Below, piece after piece: positions 9,214 through 54,939 of a DNA stretch of 64,000 nucleotides. The DNA is from Gammaproteobacteria bacterium (GTDB lineage Bacteria; Pseudomonadota; Gammaproteobacteria; Burkholderiales; Rhodocyclaceae). The stretch spans positions 34,452 to 98,451 of the forward strand of contig JARFTX010000005.1 of assembly GCA_029289265.1 (NCBI GenBank), in the 5' to 3' direction. The notes beneath the pieces are model-generated. The model saw only the letters and a program-made list of their open reading frames with translations, made no database searches and was not told the origin of the DNA. The first letter of the stretch is position 1, and each line of letters opens with the position of its first letter. A program made the translations under genes and the position numbers.

Positions 9214-9217
<4 letters not shown>

Positions 9218-12856: not shown

Positions 12857-12891
12857 TATCGAACACATCTCAACAGCGTCCAACCGGCCAA

Positions 12892-36403: not shown

Positions 36404-38646
<2,243 letters not shown>

Positions 38647-38784: not shown

Positions 38785-39615
38785 ATGGCAGACACGATCT
38801 CAGCGACCCACCGTTTCCTGATCGAGATCGCGGAAGAACTCTCCGCCCGCGACCTCAGCTTCCCGACCTTTCTCGACGCCACGCTGAAGATCCGCATGGC
38901 GCTCAACAAGGCCGACATCACCGCAGAGGAACTCGCCAAGGTCGTTGCGACCGAGCCGCTGCTCTCGGCGAAGCTGGTGAGGCTCGCCAACTCGGTCGCG
39001 ATGAACCCATCCGGCCAGCAGGTCGTCGATGTGCGCACCGCGGTGATCCGGGTCGGCTTCTCGTCGGTGCGCACGCTCGCCATCGCGCTGGCGATGGAGC
39101 AGCTCATGCAGACCAAGGAGATGGGCGACTACGTCAGGTACGCCCGCCCGCTTTGGGAGCACAGCGTCGACGTCGCCGCCCAGGCCTTTGTCCTCGCCCG
39201 GCGACTCACCCGAATCAACCCGCACGAGGCCTTGTTCGCCGGCATCGTGCATAACATCGGCGCCTTCTACCTGCTCGCCCGCATCGCCAGCCGGCCCGAC
39301 GTCGCACCCGACGGCGAGGAACTCACGCGGCTGATCGACGAATGGCAGTCCAGCATCGGCCATGCGGTGCTGTCCGCGCTGGAGATCCCGGACGAGATCC
39401 TCGCGGCCATCGCCGACCAGGAAACCCCCTTCACCGGCGAGATCCCCGCGACGCTCGCGCAAATCCTGTATGCCGCAAACCGTCTGTCCGAGCGCTCTGG
39501 GCATCTGCACTCCGTCGCCCCGGACCAGCACCCGCCGGCGCTGCAACGCGCTGCTGAAATCATCGCTGGCTCACAGGAAGAACGCACGTCGCTGATCGCG
39601 GCGCTGGGGCGGTGA
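38785..39615 (+). CDS. HDOD-domain signalling protein
   Basis: Stand-alone HDOD: FPTFLDATLKIRMALNKADITAEELAKVVATEPLLSAKLVRLANS...GIVHNIGAFYL. ATG at 38785. Confidence 0.8.
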   Translation: MADTISATHRFLIEIAEELSARDLSFPTFLDATLKIRMALNKADITAEELAKVVATEPLLSAKLVRLANSVAMNPSGQQVVDVRTAVIRVGFSSVRTLAIALAMEQLMQTKEMGDYVRYARPLWEHSVDVAAQAFVLARRLTRINPHEALFAGIVHNIGAFYLLARIASRPDVAPDGEELTRLIDEWQSSIGHAVLSALEIPDEILAAIADQETPFTGEIPATLAQILYAANRLSERSGHLHSVAPDQHPPALQRAAEIIAGSQEERTSLIAALGR

Positions 39616-39711: not shown

Positions 39712-40941
39712 GTGGCGCACGGCATCCAGCGGGTACTGCTGATCGCCGAGGGCGCCACACTCGCCCACGTCGGGCGCCCGCTGGTGATTGCGCGTACGCT
39801 CGAGCAGACCGGCGTGGAGGTCGTGTTCGCGCGGCCGCCGGAATACGCCTGGATGACGCAGCACGGGCGCTTCGAGATCGTCGATTTGCGCAGCCAGCCC
39901 CCGGCGGAATTCGCCCGTCGCCTCGACGCCGGTCGCCCGCTCTACGACCTCGACACCCTGGAAACCTATGTCGCCGACGATATCGCGCTGCTGCGCCGAT
40001 TCCGGCCCGACGCGGTGATCGGCGACTTTCGCCTGTCGTTGTCAGTGAGCGCGCGGCTCGAAGGCATCCCCTACGCGACGCTCTGCGATGCCTACTGGAG
40101 CCCGGAGTGCCCGCTCGACCCGATCGTTCCGGTCCTGCCGTTCACGCGCTTCATGCCGATCGGACTCGCCCAGGCGCTGTTCTCGGCCGTGGCGCCCATC
40201 GCCTTCAGGCTGCACGCCCGCCCGATGGAAGCGCTGCGGCGGCGGCATGGACTGCCCGGCTTCGGGCACGACCTGAGGCGCTGTTACACCGATGCGGACC
40301 TTCGCCTGTTCGCCAACCCGCGTGAGCTCTTCCCTCAGGTGCGCCCCCACTCCGGCGCTGCCTTCATCGGGCCCATCGCCTGGTCGCCCGACACCCCGCT
40401 CCCGGATGATTTTCCGTCGGACCCGGATCTCGTGTATGTCTCGATGGGCAGTTCCGGCAATGTCGGCATTCTTGACACGCTGTTCGCGACGCTTGCCTCG
40501 CTGAACCTGCCGGCCGTGGTCGCGACCGCCGGCCGGCCGGCTCCTCCCCCGCCCGCCCGCAGCTGCATCCGGCTGTACGACTTTCTCCCCGGCCGCGAAG
40601 CGATCGCACGCAGCCGACTGGTCGTCTGCAACGGCGGCAGCCCCACCACCAACCAGGCTCTCGCCGCCGGCGTGCCGGTTCTGGGCATTCCGCAGAACAT
40701 GGACCAGTTTCTCAACATGCGGGCGATCGAGCACTACGGCTGCGGGATCGGGGTACGTACCGACCGCTGCACGGCTGCGGCCCTGCATGCCGCCCTGTCG
40801 TCGCTGCTTGCAGGCACTCCTGCGCATCGGGCAGCGCAGCGCGTCCGGGCGGCGATTGCCGCCGGCGAAGGCCTGAGTCCGATTGCGGATGCGATCGGCG
40901 CCTTGCACCGCACCCGGCCGACCGAGCGCGTCGCGACGTAG
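39712..40941 (+). CDS. GT1-family (MGT/UDP-glycosyltransferase-like) glycosyltransferase
   Basis: C-terminal nucleotide-sugar-binding signature LVVCNGGSPTTNQALAAGVPVLGIPQNMDQFLNMRAIEHYGCGIGV. GTG start. Confidence 0.8.
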   Translation: MAHGIQRVLLIAEGATLAHVGRPLVIARTLEQTGVEVVFARPPEYAWMTQHGRFEIVDLRSQPPAEFARRLDAGRPLYDLDTLETYVADDIALLRRFRPDAVIGDFRLSLSVSARLEGIPYATLCDAYWSPECPLDPIVPVLPFTRFMPIGLAQALFSAVAPIAFRLHARPMEALRRRHGLPGFGHDLRRCYTDADLRLFANPRELFPQVRPHSGAAFIGPIAWSPDTPLPDDFPSDPDLVYVSMGSSGNVGILDTLFATLASLNLPAVVATAGRPAPPPPARSCIRLYDFLPGREAIARSRLVVCNGGSPTTNQALAAGVPVLGIPQNMDQFLNMRAIEHYGCGIGVRTDRCTAAALHAALSSLLAGTPAHRAAQRVRAAIAAGEGLSPIADAIGALHRTRPTERVAT

Positions 40942-41021
40942 TGTCGGAAATTTTTACACCAGAGGCTCCCGACAACTGAGCCATCCGAGATTAACCATAA
41001 ATAATCAAAGCGTTGCAAAAC

Positions 41022-41036
41022 TGGCCTGGAGATTGC
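41022..41036 (+). promoter_or_regulatory. sigma-54 (-24/-12) promoter upstream of PEP-CTERM gene 1
   Basis: TGGCCTggagaTTGCT shows the GG-N10-GC spacing of the TGGCAC-N5-TTGC consensus, 60 nt before the ATG at 41096. An IHF-core-like AATCAAagcgTTG lies at 41003-41015. Confidence 0.6.
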
Positions 41037-41095
41037 TCTATCACCTGCGAAGGCACCGTTGGTTGCCTCGAGACAACTCCCGCAGGAGCCCTGAC

Positions 41096-42121
41096 ATGAA
41101 GAAGAAACTCGCAATCGCCGCCACCGTCGCCGCACTCGGCGCAGCCGGCCAGGCCCAGGCTGCCTTCACCTCGATCTTCGTGAGCCCCGACGGCAGCGGG
41201 TTCGCGAACGCGATCGAGATCACAACCCTCAATTGGCTTGCCGGCAACGCGCTCGCCACAGGTGCGCTGGGGGCCGTCGGCCAGACCCAGGCAGACCTCG
41301 CGGACAATACAATCACCACATTCTATCAAGCGGCCCTGAACACCTTCGTGTTCAACCCTGCAGGCACGTCTACGTCATTTTTGCCTCCAGCCGGATTCGA
41401 GTGGACAGTAACCGCGACGATTGTTGAGCAGGCCGTCGGGGTCGGCGCAGCAACCGCCAGCTTCTTCCCATTCGCGGGTTCGGTGTCGATCTGGTACGGC
41501 CCGCAAAACGCAAACGACATCTCCGGCACTGGCTATGCGGATGGAATCGAAATTCTGCGGGGCACGATCGTGGGCGGTAGTGGCACCTTCACGGATACAA
41601 CCCGCACGGTGTGCAATGCGATCGCCCCGGCACCATGCACCCCGGCTACTGTTCCGACGCTGTTCCCCGATCTTGACCAATTCGGCGCGAACAATGCGCC
41701 CGGAGTGCTCACGCACATCGGCAATGGCCAGTCCGAGATCAAGGTGGATATCGGGGCAAGCGTCGGCGACTTCATCAACCCGAACTTCTTCCTCACGAAC
41801 ATCACCTCCTTCGAGTTCCTGCTCACCGGACTCGAGGACGTGAACGACTCCGGGCAGTTGTTCGCGCCCTTCAACCAGGCCAACCCGTCCGACCTCGTCC
41901 TCGGCGTCGCGCCGTCGTACAGCCTGGTGAACGGGCAGCTGATCAACGGCGGCGACTGCCCGACCGATGCCAACGGCAATTTCACCCAGCGTTGCGACTT
42001 CCACTTCCAGACGCTCAACACGACGTCGTTCCGCGCGGTGCCGGAACCGGGCGCCCTGGCGCTCGCCGGTCTGGGCTTGGGCTTGCTCGGGTTCTTCGCC
42101 CGCCGCCGCACCAGCGTCTGA
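41096..42121 (+). CDS. PEP-CTERM sorting-domain protein (exosortase cargo 1)
   Basis: Sec signal MKKKLAIAATVAALGAAGQAQA. C-terminal VPEPGALALAGLGLGLLGFFARRRTSV (PEP motif, TM helix, Arg cluster). AGGAG ribosome-binding site. The mature part has Cx7C and Cx11C pairs. Confidence 0.88.
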   Translation: MKKKLAIAATVAALGAAGQAQAAFTSIFVSPDGSGFANAIEITTLNWLAGNALATGALGAVGQTQADLADNTITTFYQAALNTFVFNPAGTSTSFLPPAGFEWTVTATIVEQAVGVGAATASFFPFAGSVSIWYGPQNANDISGTGYADGIEILRGTIVGGSGTFTDTTRTVCNAIAPAPCTPATVPTLFPDLDQFGANNAPGVLTHIGNGQSEIKVDIGASVGDFINPNFFLTNITSFEFLLTGLEDVNDSGQLFAPFNQANPSDLVLGVAPSYSLVNGQLINGGDCPTDANGNFTQRCDFHFQTLNTTSFRAVPEPGALALAGLGLGLLGFFARRRTSV

Positions 42122-42147
42122 TCCGGACACGAGCCGGTTGAACGAAA

Positions 42148-42176
42148 GGCCCGCCAGCGATGGCGGGCCGTTTCAT
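42148..42176. terminator. hairpin terminator between the convergent cargo-1 and nitroreductase genes
   Basis: GGCCCGCC-agcgat-GGCGGGCC followed by GTTTCATT. Lies in the 100-bp convergent gap. Confidence 0.65.
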
Positions 42177-42220
42177 TCCGGGTGCGCAGCGCAGCCCTGC
42201 GGCGGCCGTCGAAGCACGGG

Positions 42221-43309
42221 TCAGGCTCGGGCGTCGCCCCCTTCCCACATCAGGCTGTCGAGCGGGCGACGCGTAGAGCGCGCCCGAGGCAGGGCGGCGA
42301 CCCCCACCCGCGCGAGGATGACCGGATGCGTCCCCTGTGTGTCGACACAACGCTCGAAGCGATCGGCCAACCGTCCGATGGCGGCGTCGATTTCCGGCAG
42401 CTTCGATGCCTTGGCGCCTGCTCGGGCATACCAGCGGAAGATCACCGGCGTCATCTCCGGCTGCATATGCAGACCCACCGAATGCGCGACAAGCCAGAAG
42501 CGCTGCATGGATCGGCCGGCGGCGACGAAATCCTCGAGCGTCCGCGGCGCCGTCCGGGCCGCGATCAGCACGTGCGCTGCGCAGTAGATCCCTGGCAGGT
42601 AGTCCAGTTGCACTCTGGGCGCAACCGTGCCCATCAAGTAGCGGTTGAAGAAATCGACCCGCTCCCAACTCTGCATCACCCAGCGCATGAGGCGCGCCGT
42701 GAGCGGATCGACGCCAACCGCCTGGTCGGGGATGCGGTCCTCGCTGAAGCGTGCGTTCCATTCGATCACGTCGCGATGCACCGCATAGGCTTCGGGGCAG
42801 GTGAGGCGAATCTTCGCGTTGTCCCACAGCAGCCCGGCCATCTGCCGCCGCTGCGCGAACGATTCGAAGAACACCACTTCGAAACCCGGCCCCGGCGCCT
42901 CGGCGAGCGCGCATCGCTGCTCGGAGGTGAGCGGGGTGGTCTTCATCGGTCTCCGCTGCACCGTCCGGGAACGGATATGCGCGGCGAGCGGGTCGGGACC
43001 GACCGCCGGGTCGTGCGCGAGCCGCACGTCGTAGATCGGCGCCGTGTCGGGTGTGCCCTCGCGCAGCGTCCACTGCGCCGCCAGCCCGAACGTCGTGGCC
43101 GCAAGGCGCAGGGTCTCGAGCAAGGCCCCGTGCGCCATGTGGCTGGCACGACCCTCGAAGTCGTAGAGGACTTCCCTGCGCGTATCGAAACCGTGAATGG
43201 CGATCCAGTCGTCGGCAACGATCTCGAAGCGCCACGGCTGAGTGTTGTCACCGCTGGGCGCCCAGCGGGTGAGATCGAGGATTTTCAGGAGCGTATCGCG
43301 ATCGGTCAT
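42221..43309 (-). CDS. Acg-like double-domain nitroreductase-superfamily (FMN) protein
   Basis: N-terminus LLKILDLTRWAPSGDNTQPWRFEI (nitroreductase signature). 362 aa, with a second half-domain after IRSRTVQRRPM, as in Acg/Rv3131-type proteins. The ATG overlaps the ThiF stop (ATGA, 43306-43309). Confidence 0.8.
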   Translation of the reverse strand: MTDRDTLLKILDLTRWAPSGDNTQPWRFEIVADDWIAIHGFDTRREVLYDFEGRASHMAHGALLETLRLAATTFGLAAQWTLREGTPDTAPIYDVRLAHDPAVGPDPLAAHIRSRTVQRRPMKTTPLTSEQRCALAEAPGPGFEVVFFESFAQRRQMAGLLWDNAKIRLTCPEAYAVHRDVIEWNARFSEDRIPDQAVGVDPLTARLMRWVMQSWERVDFFNRYLMGTVAPRVQLDYLPGIYCAAHVLIAARTAPRTLEDFVAAGRSMQRFWLVAHSVGLHMQPEMTPVIFRWYARAGAKASKLPEIDAAIGRLADRFERCVDTQGTHPVILARVGVAALPRARSTRRPLDSLMWEGGDARA

Positions 43310-44190
43310 GATGTCTGCACGGCGCGCTTCATGCGCGCGAGTTGCCCGCGCGCGAGCCAAAGGGCCAGGCGCTGGAGCGGGTTGCGATTGCCGCCCGGGC
43401 GCCAGGTTTTCACCATGCGCTGCCGGTAGGCGTCGAATTGATAGCCATGCGGAGCAGGACGCAACCCAGGCCGACCGAGGAGGATTCGCACCGCCTCGGC
43501 GCCGGTCACGCCGGCGCACAACTGGCAGGCGACAATGGTCGAGGGGCCGCGCCGTTCGGCCAGATTGACCCGCGAAGCATCGGCCAGGTAGCCACGCTGC
43601 AGCATCCGCGGAGACAGGCCGAGCAGGAAGCGGATCGACATTTCCTCATCGTCGCAGTCGTCGAAGCAGAAATAGTCGTCGAAGGACATGCCTTCCGGCG
43701 CGAACACCAGAACGGCGGCGCCAAAGCCGAGCGGCGCCGCGGTCACCGCGGGGATGCCCAGCTTGCGGCAGGCGGCGAACACCGCCCGGCGAGCCTCGAA
43801 GGCGAAGAAGTCGAGCCCGTCGACATAGAGCGCCGCATCGGCGAGGAACTCCTCGACGTTCGAGAGGCCGACGCCTCCGGGAAAGCGACGCAGATCGAGT
43901 TCGGGATTGATGTCCGCGGCCATGGCCGCGAGTGTGTCGAGTTTCGGCCGTCCGAGCGAGGAAACCACGGCGCCGGCCTGGCGGTTGAAATTGACGAGAT
44001 CGAAGGTATCGAAATCGGCAATGCTGAATGCGCCGATTCCGAGCCGCGCGAGCGTGAGCAGATGCACGCCGCCGACCCCGCCCATCCCGGCGATTGCCAC
44101 GCGCGAAGCGCGCAGCGTCCGCTGCTCGGCCTCGGTCACCCAACCAATGTTGCGCGAGAAGGCCGCTTCGTAGCCGAATTCGGCGTGCAT
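43306..44190 (-). CDS. ThiF/MoeB/HesA-family E1-like adenylyltransferase
   Basis: Intact nucleotide-binding loop VAIAGMGGVGGVHLLTLARLGIGAFSIADFDTFDLVNFNRQ. 294 aa; no rhodanese domain. Confidence 0.85.
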   Translation of the reverse strand: MHAEFGYEAAFSRNIGWVTEAEQRTLRASRVAIAGMGGVGGVHLLTLARLGIGAFSIADFDTFDLVNFNRQAGAVVSSLGRPKLDTLAAMAADINPELDLRRFPGGVGLSNVEEFLADAALYVDGLDFFAFEARRAVFAACRKLGIPAVTAAPLGFGAAVLVFAPEGMSFDDYFCFDDCDDEEMSIRFLLGLSPRMLQRGYLADASRVNLAERRGPSTIVACQLCAGVTGAEAVRILLGRPGLRPAPHGYQFDAYRQRMVKTWRPGGNRNPLQRLALWLARGQLARMKRAVQTS

Positions 44191-44259
44191 GAGGCCTATC
44201 CTTCGTTCGTAGACCTTTGACGGTTATCATACATCCATGACGACCCGATCGGCTTTCGC

Positions 44260-45501
44260 ATGTTGACGGCATTCGTGGACGGCATCACGAAACAAACGCG
44301 GCTCGCCGGCCGGAATCTCGTTCGCCAGCGCCGCCGCGCCGCGCTCGCGATGCTGACCATCTGCGGAGGCGTCGTCACCTTTCTGCTCGCCGGGGGATTC
44401 ATCAACTGGATCCTCGACAGCATGCGGGAATCCACCATCCACTCGCAGTTGGGCCACGTCCAGATCGTCCGGCCCGGCTACCTGCGCGACGGGTTGGGCG
44501 ATCCTTACAGCTACCTGCTGCCCGCCGACACCGATGCCGTCACAGCCGAGCGCGTGCCGGCGTTGCGCACCGTGGCGCCACGCCTGGCGTTCAGCGGACT
44601 CGTCAGCAAGGGCGAGGAAACCATCTCGTTCGTCGGCGAAGGCATCGACCCCATTGGCGAAGCGGATATCGGCCAGTCGGTGATGATCGTCCAGGGGCAG
44701 GACCTGACCGCGGCCTCCCCCGACAGCGCCCTGCTCGGCGTCGGCCTCGCGGCGAACCTCGGTGCCGCCCCGGGCGACCAGATCGTCCTGCTTGCGACCA
44801 CCGCGAGCGGCGGCATCAATGCGATCGAGCTCACGATCGCCGGCCTGTTCGCCACGCCTGCCAAGGCCTATGACGACTCCGTGCTGCGGATTCCGATCGA
44901 TAGCGCGCGCACCCTGATGCGTGTCGAGGGCGCGACGAGCTGGGTCGTCCTGCTCGAGCGCACCCGCGCGACCGAGGCCGCCCTCGCCCACCTGCGCACG
45001 CACCTGTCGGCGGAAGAGTTCGAGATCGTTCCGTGGTACGACCTCGCCGACTTCTACAACAAGACCGTGGAGCTCTTCACCCGTCAGGTCGATGTCGTGC
45101 GGCTGCTGATCGCCCTCATCGTCATCCTGAGCATCGGCAACACCTTGTCGATGGCCGTGGTCGAGCGCACCAGCGAGATCGGCACCTCGATGGCGCTGGG
45201 GGTGCGGCGCCGCGGCATCATGACCATGTTCCTCGCCGAAGGCGCACTGCTCGGGATGGTCGGAGGCGTGGTCGGCGTCACGGCCGGAATCTTGCTGGCG
45301 GCGGTGATCTCGTTCGTCGGCATCCCGATGCCCCCTCCGCCCGGCATGGACATGGGTTTCATCGGCGAGATCTCGATATCGCCCGGCCTCGCGCTCGACG
45401 CCTTCTTGCTGGCATTCGTGACAACTTTGCTTGCGAGCCTCTTCCCGGCGTGGAAGGCTTCCCGGATGAACATCGTGGACGCGCTGCGCCAGCAACGATG
45501 A
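44260..45501 (+). CDS. FtsX/MacB/LolCE-type ABC transporter permease 1
   Basis: N-terminal LAGRNLVRQRRRAALAML TM1, a large periplasmic domain, and a C-terminal FtsX module (MALGVRRRGIMTMFLAEGALLGMVGGVVG...ASRMNIVDALRQ). Confidence 0.85.
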   Translation: MLTAFVDGITKQTRLAGRNLVRQRRRAALAMLTICGGVVTFLLAGGFINWILDSMRESTIHSQLGHVQIVRPGYLRDGLGDPYSYLLPADTDAVTAERVPALRTVAPRLAFSGLVSKGEETISFVGEGIDPIGEADIGQSVMIVQGQDLTAASPDSALLGVGLAANLGAAPGDQIVLLATTASGGINAIELTIAGLFATPAKAYDDSVLRIPIDSARTLMRVEGATSWVVLLERTRATEAALAHLRTHLSAEEFEIVPWYDLADFYNKTVELFTRQVDVVRLLIALIVILSIGNTLSMAVVERTSEIGTSMALGVRRRGIMTMFLAEGALLGMVGGVVGVTAGILLAAVISFVGIPMPPPPGMDMGFIGEISISPGLALDAFLLAFVTTLLASLFPAWKASRMNIVDALRQQR

Positions 45502-46721
45502 TCGGAATGATCCTCCGCCTCGCGCTGCGCAATCTCCTGCGCCAACGGATCCGCACGGCGATGACACTCGCCGCGATCGTGTTCGGAGTATCGGGCCTGG
45601 TCGTCTCGGGCGGCTTCGTCCAGGACATCTTCGTCCAACTGGGCGAAGCGATCATCCACTCGCAGACTGGTCATGTACAGGTCGTGCGCAAGGATTTCAT
45701 CGAGCGCGGAACGCGCCGTCCCGAACGCTACCTGATCGACGGACCGGAACAGGTCGCCGCCCAAATCGAGTCCCTGCCCGAGGTCAAGGAGGTCGCGAGC
45801 CGGCTGAGCTTTACTGGCGCGCTCAACAACGGCCGGCGCGATCTGGGCATCATAGGCGAGGGCATCGAACCGGACAAGGAGGCGCGACTGGGAACCTTCC
45901 TGACGATCACGGCGGGACGGCACCTGACCGATTCGGACCTGTTCGGCATGGTCGTCGGACAAGGGGTCGCCCACGCGTTGAGCCTCACACCGGGCGACGT
46001 GGTGACGTTGGTCATGAGTACAGCCGATGGCGCCCTCAACACGCTGGATTTCGAGCTGATCGGAGTATTCCAGAGCTTTTCGCGCGACTTCGATGCGCGC
46101 GCCGTGCGCATCCCCCTCTCGGCCGCCCAGGAGCTGATGCTGACCCCGGGCGTGAACGTTCTGGTCGCCACCCTGCATCGCACCGAGGACACCGACGGCG
46201 CCTACGCGCAGATCGTCGCCGGGCTGGACCCGGAGTCGCTCGAGGCCCATCACTGGCGGATGCTGTCGGATTTCTACGAGAAGACGCTCGACCTCTACGA
46301 CCGGCAGTTCGGCGTGCTACAGCTCATCATCCTCGCCATGGTGCTGCTGTCCGTCGCCAACAGCGTGAATATGGCGACTTTCGAGCGCATGAGCGAGTTC
46401 GGCACCATGCAGGCCCTGGGCAACCGTCGGCGGCACGTCTTCGGCCTCATCGTTGCCGAGAACGTGCTGCTGGGCGCGATCGGCGCAGTGCTGGGGGCGC
46501 TGGTCGGAGTCGCGCTGGCATTGGTGATCTCGGCGGTGGGCATCGCGATGCCGCCGCCGCCCAATGCCAACGTCGGTTACACCGCCGCGATCCGGCTCGT
46601 GCCGGAGACCATCGCCGCCGCCATGCTGATCGGCTTTCTGGCCACTTCGCTGGCGGCGATTCTTCCGGCTCGCCGTGTCTCTTCGGCGGCGGTCGTCGAT
46701 GCGCTCAGACAAGGGGCCTAG
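45498..46721 (+). CDS. FtsX/MacB/LolCE-type ABC transporter permease 2
   Basis: Paralogous architecture (LALRNLLRQRIRTAMTL...QALGNRRRHVFGLIVAENVLLGAIGAVLG...ARRVSSAAVVDALRQ). ATGA overlap with permease 1. Confidence 0.85.
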   Translation: MIGMILRLALRNLLRQRIRTAMTLAAIVFGVSGLVVSGGFVQDIFVQLGEAIIHSQTGHVQVVRKDFIERGTRRPERYLIDGPEQVAAQIESLPEVKEVASRLSFTGALNNGRRDLGIIGEGIEPDKEARLGTFLTITAGRHLTDSDLFGMVVGQGVAHALSLTPGDVVTLVMSTADGALNTLDFELIGVFQSFSRDFDARAVRIPLSAAQELMLTPGVNVLVATLHRTEDTDGAYAQIVAGLDPESLEAHHWRMLSDFYEKTLDLYDRQFGVLQLIILAMVLLSVANSVNMATFERMSEFGTMQALGNRRRHVFGLIVAENVLLGAIGAVLGALVGVALALVISAVGIAMPPPPNANVGYTAAIRLVPETIAAAMLIGFLATSLAAILPARRVSSAAVVDALRQGA

Positions 46722-46722
46722 C

Positions 46723-47496
46723 ATGTCGCTGTTCGACCGTTTCAACCTTGGACATGGCTTCAGCAAGTATTTCCGTGTCGACCCGGCAACCGACGACGCG
46801 ATGCGCGACGAGGTCTTCCGCATTCGCCACGAGGTCTATTGCCAGGAATTGCGCTTCGAGCCCGAACGGGCCGATCGGCGGGAGTGGGACGAGTACGACG
46901 CCCATAGCCTGCACTGCCTGCTGCGCACCAGCCAGTCGCCCCATCAGCCGGTTGGCTGCACTCGACTGGTCCTGACCAACCCGGACGACCGCGGCCAGCC
47001 GCTGCCTTTCGAGCGCACTTGCGCCGCCACGCTGGACCGCTCCATCATCGACCCGGCGCGGCTGCCGCGCGAGCGCATCGCCGAGGTGTCGCGCCTGGCC
47101 GTTCGCGCGAGCTACCGGCGGCGGCGCAACGAAAACGCCTCGCCCATGGCCCTGAGCGAAGAGGATTTCGGCTCGGTGACCCGGCCGCGCTTCCCCTACG
47201 TCCCGATCGGACTCTACCTGGGCGCAATCGCGCTGGCTGCCCGCAATGGCATCGACACGATCTTCGTCCTGACGGAGCCCCGCCTGGCCAGCCATTTCGC
47301 CAAGCTCGGGGTCGATGTCCGGCGCATCGGCGGGCCGGTCGAGCATCGTGGCACCCGCGTGCCGTCGATGATGGACGTCCAGTCCATCATCGCCAACATG
47401 CGCTTCCTGGTGCGGCCGATGTGGCGCGTGGTGCGAGACGAAATCGAACGGGGGTTTTCCGAGGCCCCGCACGCGGCGGCCGACATCGAGCCGTGA
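46723..47496 (+). CDS. N-acyl amino acid synthase, PEP-CTERM/exosortase-system-associated type (GNAT/LuxI-like)
   Basis: MSLFDRFNLGHGFSKYFRVDPATDDAMRDEVFRIRHEVYCQELRFE...RIAEVSRLAV...FVLTEPRLASHFAKLGV matches my recollection of the TIGR03694 family. The ATG lies 1 nt after the permease-2 stop. Confidence 0.82.
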   Translation: MSLFDRFNLGHGFSKYFRVDPATDDAMRDEVFRIRHEVYCQELRFEPERADRREWDEYDAHSLHCLLRTSQSPHQPVGCTRLVLTNPDDRGQPLPFERTCAATLDRSIIDPARLPRERIAEVSRLAVRASYRRRRNENASPMALSEEDFGSVTRPRFPYVPIGLYLGAIALAARNGIDTIFVLTEPRLASHFAKLGVDVRRIGGPVEHRGTRVPSMMDVQSIIANMRFLVRPMWRVVRDEIERGFSEAPHAAADIEP

Positions 47497-47566
47497 GCAC
47501 CTGCCACGCCGGCACTCGGACGTCCGTGGGTGCGTAGCGCCACGGTTTCCAGGATTCAAATGCGAC

Positions 47567-47587
47567 CGGGGCGCTCTGCGCGCCCCG
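47567..47587. terminator. GC-rich hairpin in the convergent gap (candidate terminator)
   Basis: CGGGGCGC-tctgc-GCGCCCCG, an 8-bp perfect stem between the NAS stop (47496) and the cargo-2 stop (47616). U-tracts are weak. Confidence 0.45.
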
Positions 47588-47615
47588 ATCGCCCCCCGAT
47601 TATTGTTTCAGGGTG

Positions 47616-48755
47616 TCAGCTCATGCTGCGCATCCGGCGGCGCAGGCTGGCCCCGATGCCGAACAGCCCGAGGCCGACCAGCGCAAGACTCGCAGGCTCC
47701 GGCACCTCGATGAAGGTGGTATTGCTCGACGCAAGGAAGAGCTGCTCGAAGCCGTTGTCGATGCGCAGATTGTCGCAACTCGGGGCAATGCGCGGGTCGC
47801 AACCCAGCCACAGCTCGAGGTGCATCGAGTACTCGCTCAGGACCGCGTCGCTGAGCGGGAAGAGCTGGCTCAGGTACTGGTTGAGGAGCGGCACGTCGGC
47901 GGCATAGGCGGCCTGGTTGGCGCCCAGATTGTGGTTGAAGCGGACGATGCCGGCAGCGTTCGAGCACGGCACGATGGGGTTGCCAGCTTGCGTCGAATCA
48001 AGGCAGACCTCGCCGCCGGAGAGCACGTAGTCGGTGATGAAGTTGCCTTGCGCATCGACGCCGATTCCCGGCAGCATCACGTTGCCAGGGTTGTACGTCG
48101 TCGCATCGCCGAGCGGGATGCCGCCGAACCCATACGCGCTCATGTTGTTGCTCAGGTAGAGATGGCGGCCGAACAGGTCGCCGTTCGGGTCGGTGAGCCA
48201 GAGCTTCGCCCAGATCGCGAGGTTCTGATCCCGGTTGGTCTCGTTGTTGTTGAACAGGAACAACGGATTGCCGCCGTCGAGGAAGCTCTTGAGCGCGAAC
48301 AGGCTCGCATCCCAGGTGGTGGCGAGTTGGGTGTGAACGCCTGCCCCACCGCCGGCGTTGGTGGGCTCGATCAGGTTGATCGCCCCTGTGCCGGCGTTCG
48401 GCGCGGTCGCGATGAAATTGGTCGTCGACGCGAAGTCGCCCTGTTGGCCCGACGGGGTCTGGTAGGCGTGTTCGAAGCCGCTGACGTTGGTCGTGACGTC
48501 CTGCCCTCCAGCCCCGGTGTAGATCACCACCAGATCCTTGATCGCTCCCGGTGTCGAGGCAATGTAGTAGGGGTTCCCCGGCCCGGTCTGCTGAGGATTG
48601 AACTCCCAGGCCGCGATCGGCAGCGAATAGACGTTGACGTTGCCGAAGGTCAGGAAGCCGACGCCGTTCAGGTCGAGCAACGCGGCGTTGGCACTGCCGA
48701 CACAGAGCGCACTGGTAAGACCCACGCATCCCAAAAGCATCTTGCTCGATTTCAT
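47616..48755 (-). CDS. PEP-CTERM sorting-domain protein (exosortase cargo 2)
   Basis: Sec signal MKSSKMLLGCVGLTSALCVGSANA. C-terminal VPEPASLALVGLGLFGIGASLRRRMRSMS. GGAG ribosome-binding site. The mature part has Cx12C and Cx7C pairs. Confidence 0.88.
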   Translation of the reverse strand: MKSSKMLLGCVGLTSALCVGSANAALLDLNGVGFLTFGNVNVYSLPIAAWEFNPQQTGPGNPYYIASTPGAIKDLVVIYTGAGGQDVTTNVSGFEHAYQTPSGQQGDFASTTNFIATAPNAGTGAINLIEPTNAGGGAGVHTQLATTWDASLFALKSFLDGGNPLFLFNNNETNRDQNLAIWAKLWLTDPNGDLFGRHLYLSNNMSAYGFGGIPLGDATTYNPGNVMLPGIGVDAQGNFITDYVLSGGEVCLDSTQAGNPIVPCSNAAGIVRFNHNLGANQAAYAADVPLLNQYLSQLFPLSDAVLSEYSMHLELWLGCDPRIAPSCDNLRIDNGFEQLFLASSNTTFIEVPEPASLALVGLGLFGIGASLRRRMRSMS

Positions 48756-48809
48756 GGCGAATTCTCCACATCTGCGGCATGAACCCCATGCCTCTTTGCC
48801 ATGAACAAA

Positions 48810-48824
48810 GCAATTGACGCGCCA
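48810..48824 (-). promoter_or_regulatory. sigma-54 (-24/-12) promoter upstream of PEP-CTERM gene 2
   Basis: The minus strand reads TGGCGCgtcaaTTGCT, one mismatch to TGGCAC-N5-TTGC with exact spacing, 55 nt upstream of the ATG at 48755. An A/T tract lies at 48842-48858, just upstream. Confidence 0.7.
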
Positions 48825-48955
48825 CTTCATGCACAAGGCTGTTTTTTATTTATTTTTTGCATTCAGCAGCCCCGACCGACCGTCCCATTGTAAAAAAAAC
48901 CGACACACCACGCCCGGCGCGTCGTTGTTCCCTTTTGGCACGATTGAAATCAAGA

Positions 48956-49011: not shown

Positions 49012-50910
49012 TCAGCCCTTCAACGCCGCCTTGATCTGCTCCAGCGTCGAGGGATCCTCGATGGTCGTCAGGTCACCCGCGTCGCGCCCTTCGGCCAGCG
49101 CCTGGATCGAGCGGCGCAGCATCTTGCCCGAACGCGTCTTCGGCAGGCCGGTGATGAAGTGGACGCGGCTCGGCCGGGCGATCGCGCCGAGTTGCTCGTC
49201 GACCTTCTTCATGACTTCCTTCTCGAGCGCGACGCGTTTCTCGGCCGTATCGGCCTTCGAGGCGTCCTTCAGCACGGCAAAGGCCATCGGCATCTGGCCC
49301 TTGACCTCGTCGGCGACGCCGACGACCGCGACCTCGGCAACCGCCGGGTGAGTCTGCACCGCCTCCTCGATCTCGCGCGTGCCGAGGCGATGACCGGCGA
49401 CGTTGATGACGTCGTCCATGCGGCCGAGGATGGTGTGGTAGCCGTTCTCGTCCTTGATGCCCCAGTCGGACGACGAGTACACCACCGGGTTCTTGAAGAG
49501 CGAGAAGTAGGTCGACACAAAGCGCTCGTCCTGGCCCCAGACCGTGGACAGGCAGCCCGGCGGCAGCGGCGGGACGATGCCGACGATGCCCTTCTCGTTG
49601 GCGCCGCACTCGCTGCCGTCCTCACGGAAGATGCGCAGGTCGTAGCCATACACGGGGAAGGCGGGCGAGCCGAGCTTGATCGGGCTCTGCTCGACTCCGC
49701 GGACGATGGCGAGCATCGGCCAACCGGTCTCGGTCTGCCAGTAGTTGTCGATCACCGGGATGCCGAGTTCGTCCATGATCCACTTGTGCGAGGTCTCGTC
49801 GAGCGGCTCGCCGGCGAGGAACAGGTGCTTGAGCGAGGACAGATCGTACTTCTTGAGGAAGGCGGGGTCCTGCTTCTTCAGCACGCGCACGGCGGTGGGC
49901 GCCGAGAACATCACGTTCACCTTGTGATCCTGGACAATCTTCCACCAGATGCCGGCGTCGGGGCGCAGCGGCGTACCTTCGTACATGACAGTGGCCATGC
50001 CGGCGATGAGCGGTCCGTAGATGATGTAGCTGTGGCCGACCACCCAGCCGATGTCCGAGGTCGAGAACATGGTCTCGCCCTCGAAGCCGGTGAAGATATG
50101 CTTCATCGACGCCGCCAGCGCGACCGTGTAGCCGCCGGTGTCGCGCTGCACGCCCTTGGGCTTGCCCGTGGTGCCGGAGGTGTAGAGGATGTACGAGGGC
50201 TCGGACGACTCCAGCCAGGTGACGGGCACCTGGGCGTCCATGTGCTTGGCGCGCAACTCGGCGTAGTCGACGTCGCGTCCGGCCACCCGCGGGAAGCCCT
50301 TGTCGAGGCCGCGGTCGACGATCAATACCTTTTGCGGCGGGAATTCGGCAAGCTTGCAGGATTCGTCGACCAGGTGCTTGTACGGAACGGGCTTGCCGTT
50401 GCGCATGCCGGCATCGGCGCTCACCATCAGCACGGGCTTGGCGTCGTCGATGCGGGTCGCGAGCGAGCCGGCGGCGAAGCCGCCGAACACCACCGAGTGG
50501 ATCGCCCCGATGCGCGCGCAGGCGAGCATCGCAAAGGCCGCCTCGGCGATCATCGGCATGTAGATCAGCACGCGGTCGCCCTTCTTGACGCCGAGATCCT
50601 GGTAGATCGCCGCCATGCGCTCGACCTCGCGCTGGAGTTCGCCAAACGAGTAGATCTTCTCTTCGTTGGTCTCGGTCGAGATATAGATCAGCGCTTTGGC
50701 GTCCGGGCGCTTGGCGGCGTGGCGGTCGACCGCGTTGTAGCAGAGGTTGGTCTCGCCACCCTTGAACCACTTGACGAAAGGCGGATTGGAAAAATCGCAG
50801 ATCTGCGCGGCCGGCTTGTTCCAGTGCACGAGCTGCGCCTGCTCGGCCCAGAATTCGTCGCGCTTGTCGATCGAACGGCGGTGAAACTCCTTGTACGTCG
50901 TCATATACAT
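49012..50910 (-). CDS. prpE: propionate-CoA ligase (propionyl-CoA synthetase)
   Basis: Colinear with E. coli PrpE: FWAEQA, NLCYNAVDRH, YTSGTTGKPKGVQRD, DIGWVVGHSYI, DNYWQTE, LPKTRSGKMLRR. Start is ATG 50910 or 50904. Confidence 0.92.
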   Translation of the reverse strand: MYMTTYKEFHRRSIDKRDEFWAEQAQLVHWNKPAAQICDFSNPPFVKWFKGGETNLCYNAVDRHAAKRPDAKALIYISTETNEEKIYSFGELQREVERMAAIYQDLGVKKGDRVLIYMPMIAEAAFAMLACARIGAIHSVVFGGFAAGSLATRIDDAKPVLMVSADAGMRNGKPVPYKHLVDESCKLAEFPPQKVLIVDRGLDKGFPRVAGRDVDYAELRAKHMDAQVPVTWLESSEPSYILYTSGTTGKPKGVQRDTGGYTVALAASMKHIFTGFEGETMFSTSDIGWVVGHSYIIYGPLIAGMATVMYEGTPLRPDAGIWWKIVQDHKVNVMFSAPTAVRVLKKQDPAFLKKYDLSSLKHLFLAGEPLDETSHKWIMDELGIPVIDNYWQTETGWPMLAIVRGVEQSPIKLGSPAFPVYGYDLRIFREDGSECGANEKGIVGIVPPLPPGCLSTVWGQDERFVSTYFSLFKNPVVYSSSDWGIKDENGYHTILGRMDDVINVAGHRLGTREIEEAVQTHPAVAEVAVVGVADEVKGQMPMAFAVLKDASKADTAEKRVALEKEVMKKVDEQLGAIARPSRVHFITGLPKTRSGKMLRRSIQALAEGRDAGDLTTIEDPSTLEQIKAALKG

Positions 50911-52266: not shown

Positions 52267-53265
52267 CTATGCGCCGATCCGCACCACCGTCCGGCCCTTG
52301 ACCTCGCCCCGGATGTAGGCGTCGAAGGCCCCGGGCAATTCGTCGAAACCGATCGTGCGCGTCACCTCGGCAAGATGGCGCGGCTTGAGATCGCCGGCGA
52401 GCCGATCCCAAACGCGCTGGCGCATCGGGAAGCCCATGTAGCCGGAATCGATGCCGAGCAGGCTCACGCCGCGCAGGATGAAGGGGAATACCGTGGTGTT
52501 GATCTTGAAATCGGCCGCGTTGCCGATGCTTGCCACGGTGCCTGCCTGCTTCATCGTCGCCAGCACCCAGTGCAGGATCTGGCCGCCCACGTTGTCGACG
52601 GCACCGGCCCACTGCGAGGCCTCGAGCGGGCGCACCTTGTCGAAGTCGATCTCGCTGCGCAGCTTGATCTCGGCCGCACCGAGCCCCTTCAGATAGTCCG
52701 CCTCCGCTGCCTTGCCGGTCAGCGCGACGACGTGGTAGCCGAGCCGCGCCAGCATGTCGATGGCGAGGCCGCCGACGCCGCCGGTCGCCCCGGTGACAAT
52801 GACCGGGCCGTTGTCCGGTGCGAGGCCGTTGTCTTCCATGCGCACGACACCGAGCGCCGCTGTGAAGCCGGCGGTGCCGAGCGCCATCGCTTCGAAGAGA
52901 TCGAGACCGGCTGGCAGCGGCACGACCCAGCCGGCCGGCACGCGCGCGTATTCGGCATAGCCGCCGTGGTGCGCGACGCCGATGTCGAAGCTGGTGGCGA
53001 TGACCTTGTCGCCGGGCGCGAAACGCGCGTCGGCACTTTCGACCACCTCGCCCGACAGGTCGATGCCGCCCACGCATGGAAAGCGGCGGATGATCTTGCC
53101 CGCGCCGGTCGCCGCAAGCGCGTCCTTGTAGTTGATGCTCGAGTAATGGACGCGGATCAGCACTTCTCCGGCATCGAGCCGGTCGCGGTCGAGCGTCGTC
53201 AACCGCCCGCCGACCTTCTTGTCGGCGTCCTGATCGATGAGATAGGCCTTGAAGGGTGAATTCAT
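52267..53265 (-). CDS. acuI: acrylyl-CoA reductase (NADPH), YhdH/AcuI family
   Basis: Colinear with E. coli YhdH: SSINYKDALA, GIDLSGEV, TGATGGVGG, VFPFILRGVSLLGIDS, GRTVV. Its stop lies 2 nt before the response-regulator ATG. Confidence 0.85.
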   Translation of the reverse strand: MNSPFKAYLIDQDADKKVGGRLTTLDRDRLDAGEVLIRVHYSSINYKDALAATGAGKIIRRFPCVGGIDLSGEVVESADARFAPGDKVIATSFDIGVAHHGGYAEYARVPAGWVVPLPAGLDLFEAMALGTAGFTAALGVVRMEDNGLAPDNGPVIVTGATGGVGGLAIDMLARLGYHVVALTGKAAEADYLKGLGAAEIKLRSEIDFDKVRPLEASQWAGAVDNVGGQILHWVLATMKQAGTVASIGNAADFKINTTVFPFILRGVSLLGIDSGYMGFPMRQRVWDRLAGDLKPRHLAEVTRTIGFDELPGAFDAYIRGEVKGRTVVRIGA

Positions 53266-53407
53266 CGGTGTCTCCTCTGCGATGGGGCGGCGGAAGGGCC
53301 GTGCGCCGCGTTTTGCGCCGATTATATCTCGACTGCCGGCACAGCCAGACTTCAGTTCCGGCCCGCGGAGGCCGATAATCCCGGGGTGCGATGACAAACT
53401 GTTGCGG

Positions 53408-54313
53408 ATGAGCCCCCTCGACGCCCCCCTTGATTCGGTCGATGCCTACGTGGCGCTGTTCACGCGGCAGGAGATCCCCGTACTGCGGCACACCGTGCGG
53501 ACACTGGAAGCCCTGCGCGACCGCGAGGAAAGCGTCAATGGCCGGCACATCGCCGCCATCGTCCAGGGCGACCCGCTGATGACGATGCGGCTGCTCGTGC
53601 ATCTGCAGGCGCACCGCCCGGCGGCCCAGAACCATGACATCACGACCATCGATCGGGCCGTGATGATGATGGGCGTGCCCCCGTTTCTCGCGACCTTCTC
53701 CAACCTGCCGACCCTCGAGGACCAGCTCGCCGGCAATCCGCGTGCGCTGCTGGGTGCGCTGCAGGTGATCGGCCGGGCGCGCAAGGCGGCGCACTTCGCG
53801 CGCGACTGGGCGATCGTGCGCCACGATCTCGACGTCGACGAGATCACGGTCGCCGCGCTGTTGCGCGAAGCGACCGAGATCATGATGTGGATCTTCGCGC
53901 CCGCCCTGAGCCTGAAGGTGCAGGCAATGCAGAAGGCCGACCCGAACTTGCGCGCGGTGGCGGCCCAGCGCGCCGTCTTCGGCGTGGCCGAGAGCGAAGT
54001 GCAGCTTGCCCTGGTAAGGGCCTGGAACATGCCCGAGCTGCTGGTGACGCTGCTCGACGAAGCGCACTGGGAGAATCCGCGCGTGCGCAACGTGCGCCTC
54101 GCCAGCGATCTCGCCCGGCACGTCGCGCACGGCTGGGACAACCCGGCCGTGCCGGACGATCTTGCCGAGATCGAACGCCTGCTGCATGTCGGGCGCGAGC
54201 CCCTGCTGCGGCGCCTCGGCGTGCCCTTCGAGCTGACGAATCGATTCCTCGGCGACCCCGCCGCGCCGGAGCCGGCTTCGACCGGTCCAGCGCCCGGCGA
54301 CAACCCGCGCTAG
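53408..54313 (+). CDS. HDOD-domain protein
   Basis: QEIPVLRHTVRTLEALRDRE...GDPLMTMRLLVHLQ...TTIDRAVMMMG is HDOD-like. ATG at 53408. Confidence 0.75.
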   Translation: MSPLDAPLDSVDAYVALFTRQEIPVLRHTVRTLEALRDREESVNGRHIAAIVQGDPLMTMRLLVHLQAHRPAAQNHDITTIDRAVMMMGVPPFLATFSNLPTLEDQLAGNPRALLGALQVIGRARKAAHFARDWAIVRHDLDVDEITVAALLREATEIMMWIFAPALSLKVQAMQKADPNLRAVAAQRAVFGVAESEVQLALVRAWNMPELLVTLLDEAHWENPRVRNVRLASDLARHVAHGWDNPAVPDDLAEIERLLHVGREPLLRRLGVPFELTNRFLGDPAAPEPASTGPAPGDNPR

Positions 54314-54340
54314 CCCTTGCCCTTGACCGGAGTTCTGCCC

Positions 54341-54916
54341 ATGAGCATCTCGAACGCGATCATCCTGGGGGCGCTCGTCGCCGCCGTCCTCTACGCGATC
54401 GTCGTCTACAACGGCCTGGTGCAGCTGCGGCACAACGTCGCCAAGGCCTGGGCCAACATCGACGTGCTGCTCAAGCAGCGCCACGACGAGTTGCCCAAGC
54501 TGGTCGAGGTCTGCAAGCAATATCGCCAGTTCGAGCAGGAGACGCTCACGCGCGTCACCGAAGCGCGGGCGCGGGTCGCCTCCGCCCGCGAGCGCCACGA
54601 CGTGCCGGCGCTGGGCACCGCCGAAGGCATGCTGCGCATGGGTCTGGGCCAGATCTTCGCCGTCGCCGAGGCCTACCCCGAGCTCAAGGCCAACGAGCAC
54701 TTCATGCAGTTGCAAACCCGCATCACCGCGCTCGAGAACGGCATCGCCGACCGGCGCGAGTGGTACAACGAATCGGTCAATGTGCACAACGTGCGCATCG
54801 ACCAGTTCCCCGACCTGATCGTCGCCCGCACGCTCAACTTCGTGCGCGAGCCGCTGCTGGTGTTCGCCAGCGCGGAGAAGGCCGACGTCGATCTGAAGGC
54901 GCTGTTCGGCACCTGA
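54341..54916 (+). CDS. lemA: LemA-family protein
   Basis: N-terminal TM helix followed by YNGLVQLRHNVAKAWANIDVLLKQRHDELPKLVE...EAYPELKANEHFMQLQ...ENGIADRREWYNESV. Confidence 0.9.
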   Translation: MSISNAIILGALVAAVLYAIVVYNGLVQLRHNVAKAWANIDVLLKQRHDELPKLVEVCKQYRQFEQETLTRVTEARARVASARERHDVPALGTAEGMLRMGLGQIFAVAEAYPELKANEHFMQLQTRITALENGIADRREWYNESVNVHNVRIDQFPDLIVARTLNFVREPLLVFASAEKADVDLKALFGT

Positions 54917-54939
54917 GCACCCGCTGAGAGCCCGTCACG

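Follow-up and report, generated by a model that had tools for sequence, protein, structure and literature searches.

The enzymes encoded by the gene cluster examined here have close described counterparts. [quoted passage not shown] The locus in question lies in a stretch of contig JARFTX010000005.1 from a member of the Rhodocyclaceae (the whole stretch, 64 kb in length, is referred to below as the window). Its core, at 42221-47496, is probably an oxazolone or N-acyl-dehydro-amino-acid gene cluster in split-gene form that has a putative LolCE-like export function attached to it, and genes for two PEP-CTERM proteins, the cargo of exosortases, lie on either side.

In Pseudoalteromonas rubra and other proteobacteria, the accessible text of the OxzAB report (bioRxiv 10.1101/2020.06.11.147165; publication year 2021 according to a review, PMC12596934) has OxzA producing N-acyl-Tyr or N-acyl-Phe, which the di-domain ThiF-nitroreductase protein OxzB cyclises and oxidises to tyrazolones and phenazolones. 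Mycobacterium tuberculosis splits the same chemistry, in the part of the account that is accessible, among TyzA, the ATP-dependent cyclase TyzB and the flavin-dependent desaturase TyzC (Rv2336, Rv2338c and Rv2337c, respectively), the product being an N-acyl tyrazolone (PMC10404671). The desaturation catalysed by the characterised TyzC is O2-dependent. TrzA and TrzS (Rv1356c and Rv1355c) are makers of tryptazolones (PMC12856293). Clusters of ThiF, nitroreductase and NAS genes are likewise responsible for N-acyl-dehydrotyrosines, namely the stieleriacines, thalassotalic acids and kyonggic acids (PMC12479983), and the PEP-CTERM gene inside the stieleriacine cluster has been noted previously (PMC7293339). 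Oxazolones have been proposed elsewhere as stress-related signals. Since this pathway uses precisely a synthase, a ThiF-like enzyme and a nitroreductase-family enzyme, the statement in a sequence-only reading of the locus that no role had been described for an E1-like protein and an Acg-type flavoprotein beside such a synthase was incorrect.

The biosynthetic core

The G+C content of the window is ~68%, and open reading frames (ORFs) were therefore chosen by codon-position bias together with profile matches. The core comprises five genes:

42221-43309, minus strand: nitroreductase-superfamily flavin-dependent oxidase, counterpart of TyzC and of the C-terminal domain of OxzB (profile matches, fusion homology)
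43306-44190, minus strand: ThiF/E1-like adenylating cyclase, counterpart of TyzB and of the N-terminal domain of OxzB (NF006077/PRK08223, 461.6 bits; cut-off 266)
44260-45501, plus strand: FtsX1, FtsX/MacB-type permease (type VII ABC, LolC/E-like; PF12704 and PF02687)
45498-46721, plus strand: FtsX2, FtsX/MacB-type permease (PF12704 and PF02687)
46723-47496, plus strand: NAS of the TIGR03694 type (264.5 bits; cut-off 111.95)

The NAS gene is divergent from the ThiF gene. Read directly from the sequence, the ThiF/nitroreductase and FtsX1/FtsX2 junctions are ATGA overlaps, and FtsX2 and NAS are joined as TAG-c-ATG, with a 1-nt gap. With the glycosyltransferase and PEP-CTERM genes described below, these form the compact eight-gene unit that the sequence-only reading had delineated; profile searches and the reading of the junctions bear out its extent, its overlaps and the identities assigned to all eight genes.

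The NAS matches TIGR03694 over 231 residues, far above the family cut-off at which that identification might have fallen, and also matches PF13444, PF21926 and PF00765. The ThiF protein scores 336 bits with PRK14851 in addition to its PRK08223 match. What ties ThiF and the nitroreductase to one another, and to the oxazolone enzymes, is their relation to fused proteins: they match the respective halves of the Rv1355c/TrzS profile NF005901 (ThiF, 56 bits at positions 91-225; nitroreductase, 114 bits at positions 373-716) and of the 679-residue PRK14851 fusion profile, with which the nitroreductase scores 82 bits. A search of 1.84 billion representatives of 50%-identity clusters yields 425 ThiF relatives at E < 1e-30. 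Among the nearest 150 of these representatives, 86 also contain, as a fused domain, a homologue of the window nitroreductase (80 in the order ThiF-nitroreductase, 6 in the reverse order) and ~10 more have an N-terminal extension of ~230-310 residues. Two representatives (P0126 and P0278) are fusions of a TIGR03694 synthase (182 and 214 bits) to a PRK08223-type ThiF, and the P0278 gene is followed by an overlapping nitroreductase gene. PRK14852 proteins combine all three modules as FeeM-NAS::ThiF::nitroreductase tri-domain polypeptides, of which clustering at 90% identity gives at least 23 groups. On these profile and fusion matches, the window ThiF and nitroreductase are placed in the family of ThiF-nitroreductase fusions whose architecture is of the OxzB type.

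An operon in a Sphingomonadales metagenome-assembled genome (MAG) provides the most direct bridge to oxzAB. It has the oxzAB layout, an NAS gene followed directly by a gene for a 672-residue ThiF-nitroreductase protein, and its products are 58% (ThiF), 37% (nitroreductase; 354 residues, E 4e-64) and 28% (NAS) identical with those of the window. The NAS in the OxzA position scores 143.4 bits with TIGR03694, above its cut-off, so that there is overlap between the OxzA family and that of the "exosortase-associated acyltransferase".

The residues expected for E1 adenylation are invariant in an alignment of 12 ThiF sequences: G35, G37, G40 and G41 of the GxGxxG motif, D61, R70, K83, D124 and D127. 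NAS, ThiF and nitroreductase are devoid of transmembrane segments and signal peptides, and are predicted to be soluble and cytoplasmic. Solved structures are less informative: ThiF matches only generic ThiF, TcdA and MoeB, the nitroreductase has a marginal match only, NAS has none, and the PDB search brought up no structure from the oxazolone pathway.

The tri-domain PRK14852 family is represented by the 989-residue protein DVU_RS16045 (positions 8068-11037 of plasmid pDV of Nitratidesulfovibrio vulgaris Hildenborough), which is encoded inside an XrtA/PEP-CTERM exopolysaccharide (EPS) locus. Its annotation is merely "ThiF family adenylyltransferase" and PRK14852 itself is titled "hypothetical protein"; two related contigs (L096 and L097) carry the same kind of gene. 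Some stand-alone ThiF relatives have no synthase nearby, so that the association of ThiF with the synthase is not universal.

Related loci

A scan of a genome collection retained the closest 80 loci, all from Rhodocyclales, of which 71 Zoogloeaceae loci have flanks adequate for counting; more distant contexts were approached by tblastn against plasmids, through the 50%-cluster representatives and by looking up contigs. By the nearest relatives of its NAS, the source organism of the window belongs to Zoogloeaceae, close to Azoarcus and Pseudothauera. ThiF stands beside NAS in 58 of the 71 loci, an orthologous nitroreductase is found near it in 36 and a pair of FtsX genes in 35 (with a single FtsX gene in 3 others), so that the loss of synteny named in the sequence-only reading as a refutation is not observed. 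In 40 a PEP-CTERM gene is no more than 2.5 kb away from the cluster, and all four features occur together, as in the window, in 19. Several Zoogloea loci retain the divergent ThiF/NAS pair alone; one of them, examined closely, is set among unrelated genes. Some Azoarcus and Thauera loci have FtsX-FtsX-NAS and a PEP-CTERM gene and no ThiF. A PEP-CTERM gene is present in 33 of the 35 loci with the FtsX pair, as against 7 of the 36 that lack it; because this co-occurrence tracks clade and the site of insertion between proB and prpE, it is weak evidence of coupling.

That site, from proB (37531-38646) to prpE (49012-50910), is a variable island in genomes of Azoarcus, Thauera, Aromatoleum and Denitromonas, in which the genes around the conserved synthase differ from genome to genome; the Zoogloea ThiF/NAS pair sits elsewhere. 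In one Zoogloea oleivorans locus (L058), an Acg/TyzC-like oxidase is lacking and a 273-residue classical nitroreductase (11947-12765; PF00881, 75 bits) is encoded two genes past the synthase. It may stand in for the missing oxidase, or its presence may be coincidental.

Permeases, export partners and the glycosyltransferase

Type VII ATP-binding cassette (ABC) systems extract hydrophobic compounds from the inner membrane, as described in the accessible part of a recent account (PMC12646458). Hydropathy and the PF12704 and PF02687 matches, which the sequence-only reading had foreseen, give both window permeases 1 + 3 transmembrane segments, a large periplasmic MacB domain and a C-terminal FtsX bundle. 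With the LolC/E profile TIGR02212 (cut-off 362) FtsX1 scores 108.8 bits and FtsX2 78.7 bits; by these scores the pair is classed as LolC/E-like but not as the housekeeping LolCE. The junctions couple FtsX1, FtsX2 and NAS translationally.

A cognate ATPase accompanies the cluster in one of the 80 Zoogloeaceae loci, that of Azoarcus taiwanensis, and also in Desulfobacter, in Desulfovibrionales and on a Bdellovibrio plasmid. The A. taiwanensis arrangement (L037, 1529-11768) runs from a DUF1302 gene and a LolD-like ATPase through a LolA-like gene, then ThiF and PEP-CTERM genes, to methyltransferase-FtsX-FtsX-NAS and a second NAS. (This second synthase is of the FeeM type, and the variant has no orthologous nitroreductase.) The cluster of Desulfobacter postgatei comprises two NAS genes and genes for a ThiF-nitroreductase, an ABC ATPase, one FtsX permease, a LolA-like protein, a DUF1302 protein, a GT1 glycosyltransferase, a methyltransferase and a PEP-CTERM protein. 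Its permease is 42% identical with window FtsX1 over the full length (E 2e-107) and 40% identical with FtsX2 (E 6e-103), its ATPase is 57% and its LolA-like protein 44% identical with the A. taiwanensis counterparts. The Bdellovibrio plasmid has a LolA-like protein, an ATPase, FtsX, ThiF, FeeM-NAS and two GT1 homologues; no PEP-CTERM gene was seen at that cluster. On account of these three sets, the permease pair of the window looks like a duplicated component of a type VII ABC system dedicated to export, and the ATPase, periplasmic carrier and outer-membrane partner look, as judged from gene content, to be encoded elsewhere or to have been lost.

The first gene of the eight-gene unit may provide a tailoring function:

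39712-40941, plus strand: GT1 glycosyltransferase (MGT/EryCIII-like, that is, of the erythromycin-CIII type; PF06722, 54.1 bits; also PF04101 and PF00201)

It scores 55 bits with TIGR01426, under the cut-off of 260. Homologues occur in 11 of 80 Zoogloeaceae loci. The D. postgatei GT1 has the same Pfam signature and is 25% identical with the window protein over 360 residues (E 2e-33), and a GT1 of the Bdellovibrio plasmid is 31% identical (E 4e-55). It is, tentatively, a candidate for glycosylating the lipid product.

The PEP-CTERM genes and their promoters

The cargo genes, their promoter elements and a hairpin beside the first of them are as follows:

40943-40958, plus strand: upstream activator motif GTCGGAAATTTTTACA of PEP-CTERM gene 1, PrsR-type "motif 1" (GTCGG-N6-TTACA; includes the TTTACA element)
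41022-41036, plus strand: sigma-54 -24/-12 site TGGCCTGGAGATTGC of PEP-CTERM gene 1 (GG-N10-GC; 63 nt past the motif, 59 nt before the ATG)
41096-42121, plus strand: PEP-CTERM protein 1, PepA-like exosortase cargo (PF07589, 28.2 bits; cut-off 20.7)
42148-42169, both strands: GC-rich, terminator-like hairpin in the gap where the PEP-CTERM 1 and nitroreductase genes converge (9-bp stem, 8 GC pairs)
47616-48755, minus strand: PEP-CTERM protein 2, exosortase cargo with an N-terminal domain of no assigned family (PF07589, 29.3 bits; TIGR02595, 23.5 bits, cut-off 16)
48810-48824, minus strand: sigma-54 -24/-12 site TGGCGCGTCAATTGC of PEP-CTERM gene 2 (GG-N10-GC; 54 nt before the ATG)
48889-48904, minus strand: upstream activator motif GTCGGTTTTTTTTACA of PEP-CTERM gene 2 (GTCGG-N6-TTACA; 64 nt upstream of the sigma-54 site)

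Both proteins thus have the C-terminal PEP-CTERM sorting domain above the PF07589 cut-off, the second also passing TIGR02595, as the sequence-only reading had expected. Protein 1 matches the floc_PepA profile NF033554 over its full length at 64.8 bits, which is under the cut-off of 80.

The GTCGG-N6-TTACA motif has exactly 2 matches in the window, with 0.01 expected. The bare sigma-54 consensus is not enriched in the window and the significance of the two sites therefore rests on their position, on the paired upstream motif and on conservation. In the 80 related loci and the window taken together, a -24/-12 match lies within 200 nt of 51 of 66 PEP-CTERM ORFs and of 158 of 2406 control ORFs; the upstream motif is found at 35 of 66 PEP-CTERM ORFs and at 5 of 2390 controls. 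The biosynthetic operons of the window do not carry the combination. In this layout, which Haft and colleagues (2006) described for proteobacterial PEP-CTERM genes, a spacer of 62.8 +/- 10.6 nt separates motif 1, which contains TTTACA, from the sigma-54 motif, and the start codon follows after ~71 nt (PMC1569441). The dependence of pepA on RpoN has been shown experimentally (PMC9850573). The sequence-only reading was accordingly right about the sites at both ends, but their "bracketing" of the locus is not special, this being the standard regulatory site of such genes (PMC1569441). By these promoter and domain matches, both flanking genes are classed as ordinary PrsR/sigma-54-regulated exosortase cargo genes.

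Linkage to exosortase systems

Although two PEP-CTERM genes adjoin the NAS cluster, the window contains no exosortase gene, nor any PrsK/PrsR or EPS gene. In four Desulfovibrionales genomes (plasmid pDV of D. vulgaris, two contigs of MAG/metagenome origin and that of Pseudodesulfovibrio hydrargyri), XrtA/PEP-CTERM EPS loci have the NAS-ThiF-nitroreductase module, either fused or split over two genes, within them or next to them. Genes nearby encode PEP-CTERM proteins, a protease of the Rce1-like kind and a MacAB-like ABC pump, to which 3 of the 4 loci add a sigma-54 activator. The Rce1-like/CAAX-protease-family gene is conserved in its place between the pump and the PEP-CTERM genes (L096, L097, L099 and L084). 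The MacB-type permease of this pump was considered as an ortholog of the window permeases and rejected by comparison, only the Desulfobacter permease being orthologous; exporters of this class have therefore been recruited independently. In Methylomonas LW13, disruption of a TIGR03694-type gene leads to loss of a polysaccharide band. No paper that pairs "oxazolone" or "ThiF" meaningfully with "exosortase" was found in the open-access literature. PEP-CTERM genes habitually travel with the NAS-ThiF-nitroreductase cluster, and the linkage is recurrent and real.

A proposed pathway and its alternatives

By analogy with the characterised enzymes, the TIGR03694 synthase, as the OxzA/TyzA equivalent, would N-acylate an amino acid with fatty acyl-CoA or acyl-ACP, the nitroreductase-family flavoenzyme (TyzC equivalent) would desaturate C-alpha/C-beta, and the ThiF-like enzyme (TyzB equivalent) would adenylate the free carboxylate and cyclise the product, in an ATP-dependent step, to a 2-alkyl-4-ylidene-oxazol-5-one, which may remain as such or undergo ring opening to give the N-acyl-dehydro-amino acid. 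The FtsX/MacB-type permeases, presumably co-transcribed with the synthase, would form a LolCE-like heterodimer that pulls the lipid from the inner membrane with the help of an ATPase supplied in trans, and relatives of the cluster would complete the route with the LolA-like periplasmic carrier and the DUF1302 outer-membrane protein. For this export, and for possible glycosylation of the product by GT1, operon structure and cross-phylum synteny provide the grounds, which are slight in the case of GT1. The broad scheme of the sequence-only reading, in which an N-acyl amino acid is made, tailored and exported, fits all this.

Several findings weigh against so specific an assignment. The link to the studied OxzB, TyzB and TyzC runs through profiles, fusions and the MAG operon and not through direct alignment. 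The Rv1355c/TrzS equivalog has a cut-off of 476 bits, which the 114 bits of the nitroreductase and the 56 bits of ThiF do not reach, and the two window proteins are accordingly to be regarded, on their scores, as homologous to, and not members of, the actinobacterial fused subfamily. The nitroreductase likewise scores 122.2 bits with the Acg family NF047509, under its cut-off of 199; "Acg-like" denotes a relationship of fold only. About half of the related loci are without the nitroreductase and some are without ThiF, so that the pathway is modular. The window has no LolD/MacB-type ATPase, as "ATPase-less" in the sequence-only reading correctly implied (it encodes only importer-type, DrrA-type and ABC-F ATPases, far away), and no LolA-like or DUF1302 gene; export from the window locus is therefore only putative. 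The products of the window, and of any TIGR03694-type cluster of this layout, are predicted from their genes, and with the stieleriacines and related acids no oxazolone was observed (PMC12479983). Finally, the ThiF/nitroreductase module is also found in strict anaerobes, which conflicts with an obligatorily O2-dependent desaturation. (Di-domain enzymes of OxzB architecture are abundant in strictly anaerobic Desulfobacterota, D. postgatei and P. hydrargyri among them; since the characterised desaturation by TyzC depends on O2, another electron acceptor or another chemistry is needed there.)

The alternatives differ in what they make of ThiF and of the cargo genes. ThiF might instead adenylate a protein or peptide at its C-terminus (a ThiS/MoaD-like carrier, the precursor of a ribosomally synthesised and post-translationally modified peptide, or the PEP-CTERM cargo itself), the nitroreductase acting on that product independently of the synthase. 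Before OxzB, the characterised substrates of the ThiF family were all polypeptides or tRNA, according to the accessible text of the preprint (bioRxiv 10.1101/2020.06.11.147165), and the best solved-structure matches are ThiF, TcdA and MoeB. Yet ThiF is predicted to be cytoplasmic and the cargo is exported, nature has fused ThiF directly to N-acyl amino acid synthases and kept it beside NAS in most of the related loci, and the characterised relatives act on N-acyl amino acids. No ORF of at least 50 residues ending in Gly-Gly is found in the interval 39-49.5 kb, and a ThiS/MoaD-like carrier was rejected together with this model, which we regard as very improbable. A quite different proposal is that the lipid is made for the PEP-CTERM pathway as a dedicated exosortase co-factor, either as acceptor or anchor of the cleaved cargo or as an amine-reactive azlactone that donates its acyl group to cargo or to deacetylated EPS, with the Lol-like permeases moving the lipid or lipidated cargo outward. 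The proximity of PEP-CTERM genes in Zoogloeaceae (more than half of the counted loci, and nearly all of those with the FtsX pair), the Desulfovibrionales XrtA loci, the PEP-CTERM genes of the Desulfobacter and stieleriacine clusters, the Methylomonas phenotype and the exosortase co-occurrence on which TIGR03694 was defined all speak for it. Against it, the same enzyme core occurs without a PEP-CTERM gene in the examined flanks of three loci (L090, L086 and L092), the pathway was characterised in M. tuberculosis and P. rubra without reference to exosortase, the PrsR/sigma-54 site of the cargo genes is not shared with the biosynthetic operons, and the correlation with FtsX is confounded by clade and insertion site; moreover, an oxazolone is an electrophile, while an exosortase acyl-enzyme would need a nucleophile, and lipidation of cargo is not directly supported. 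We consider it unlikely.

The remaining alternative is looser: the product would be a secreted signal, surfactant or stress lipid whose genes share with PEP-CTERM genes (numerous in these genomes) the proB-prpE variable island and a biofilm lifestyle, with no interaction between lipid and cargo. The position of the locus between housekeeping genes with no exosortase nearby, the wide variation of the island among relatives, the difference in promoters between cargo and biosynthetic genes and the proposal that oxazolones are stress-related signals are consistent with this, but the linkage turns up again in phyla and at genomic sites that have no relation to each other, XrtA EPS loci included, so that chance or a single island is hard to credit. 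We see it as a possibility to be kept in mind and do not favour it. The preferred reading, then, is that the core is an oxazolone or N-acyl-dehydro-amino-acid cluster with LolCE-like export, and it leaves the connection with exosortase to speculation: use of the lipid by that pathway as signal, anchor or acceptor, which the sequence-only reading had also put forward, is conjectural. In its most general form, the conjecture would be that TIGR03694/FeeM-type enzymes make, instead of a plain N-acyl amino acid, an oxazolone or dehydro-lipoamino acid (perhaps glycosylated) that serves PEP-CTERM/exosortase systems as a dedicated component, for example an azlactone that lipidates cargo or amino-sugar EPS, and that the Lol-like route carries the lipid or lipidated cargo to the surface; we think this rather improbable.

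What the locus suggests is what "exosortase-associated" acyltransferases really make. The overlap of TIGR03694 with OxzA, together with the usual adjacency of ThiF and oxidase genes or their fusion, shifts the expected product from a simple surfactant to a reactive azlactone or dehydro-lipoamino acid. Since candidate products can be named, they can be searched for by liquid chromatography-mass spectrometry and by ultraviolet absorption. The wider system is conserved across several phyla, including the XrtA EPS loci of sulfate reducers; it is relevant to the way in which activated-sludge bacteria form flocs and biofilms and to how oxazolone lipids leave the cell, a point not addressed in the accessible OxzAB and Tyz text, and its presence in strict anaerobes raises the question of the mechanism of the "O2-dependent" desaturation.

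Flanking genes

Housekeeping genes flank the locus, with rplU-rpmA-obgE-proB and an HDOD gene upstream and prpE-acuI downstream. HDOD signalling genes lie on both sides of the region, at 38785-39615 and 53246-54313. The first is directly 5' of GT1, and HDOD-GT1 synteny is found in a few relatives (for example, L003). The second is followed by a LemA-family gene (54314-54916) and a gene with a weak match to the E3 ligase-like GIDE family (54928-55842), a recurrent pair of membrane proteins. Further on, a protein of the PF10136 "site-specific recombinase" family (57815-60166, plus strand; 799 bits) is encoded beside the ABC-F ATPase Uup (55907-58543, minus strand). Their stop-to-stop ORFs overlap by ~700 bp, and because the Uup match begins only at residue 242 the real genes probably just abut. 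A Fic/DOC-domain protein without an NCBIfam match is encoded among housekeeping genes at 12418-14109.

Comparison with known systems

The cargo part of the locus is ordinary. Like other PrsR/sigma-54-regulated PEP-CTERM genes (PMC1569441), these are single-gene units in which a -24/-12 site follows the upstream motif after ~63 nt, and one of them encodes a PepA-like product. The spacers of 63 and 64 nt match the published mean of 62.8 nt and the distance to the ATG is ~55-60 nt; there is no material difference. The permeases resemble LolC and LolE in being two paralogous 4-transmembrane-segment proteins with a MacB-type periplasmic domain, by comparison with the LolCDE/MacB type VII ABC transporters, YbbAP included, as these are described in the accessible text of PMC12646458. 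The LolD-like ATPase and LolA-like protein are found in relatives of the cluster, whereas the window locus has no ATPase gene, and its presumed substrate is a small lipid, while that of LolCDE is a lipoprotein.

With OxzA/OxzB the locus has three catalytic modules in common. OxzB is one ThiF-nitroreductase polypeptide encoded in a two-gene operon, whereas in the window its two domains correspond to separate genes that are divergent from the synthase gene. The window has a GT1, and glycosyltransferases near some oxzB genes are remarked on by the authors in the accessible oxzAB text (bioRxiv 10.1101/2020.06.11.147165), which makes no mention of permeases or PEP-CTERM genes. The gene arrangement is closer to that of TyzA/B/C: in both, the ThiF and oxidase genes are adjacent and the synthase gene is divergent. 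The gene for the lipid transporter MmpL9 flanks the tyz genes, so that a transporter is a neighbour in both loci, although it is of the MmpL type there and of the FtsX/MacB type here. The tyz genes are actinobacterial and not accompanied by a PEP-CTERM system, TyzA is not reported as TIGR03694 in the accessible part of that account, and the window is connected to them by the Rv1355c-family profile and the fusion relatives and not by direct alignment. In the stieleriacine cluster of Stieleria maiorica, genes for NAS, ThiF-family, nitroreductase, methyltransferase and PEP-CTERM proteins stand together, the product is an N-acyl-2,3-dehydrotyrosine and a link to EPS and biofilm has been proposed (PMC7293339, PMC12479983); it differs in its planctomycete host and its four NAS paralogues, and FtsX, permease and transporter genes are unmentioned in the full text of PMC12479983.

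The biosynthetic core thus belongs to a kind already known, and the promoters of the cargo genes are of the textbook form. The extended set (a type VII ABC permease, accompanied or not by ATPase, LolA-like and DUF1302 proteins, together with the GT1 and the PEP-CTERM genes) was not found described in the searchable literature, and neither was the overlap of the TIGR03694 and OxzA families. This set recurs with the core in Zoogloeaceae, in Desulfobacter, in the XrtA loci of Desulfovibrionales and, as permease and GT1 with no PEP-CTERM gene seen, on a Bdellovibrio plasmid.

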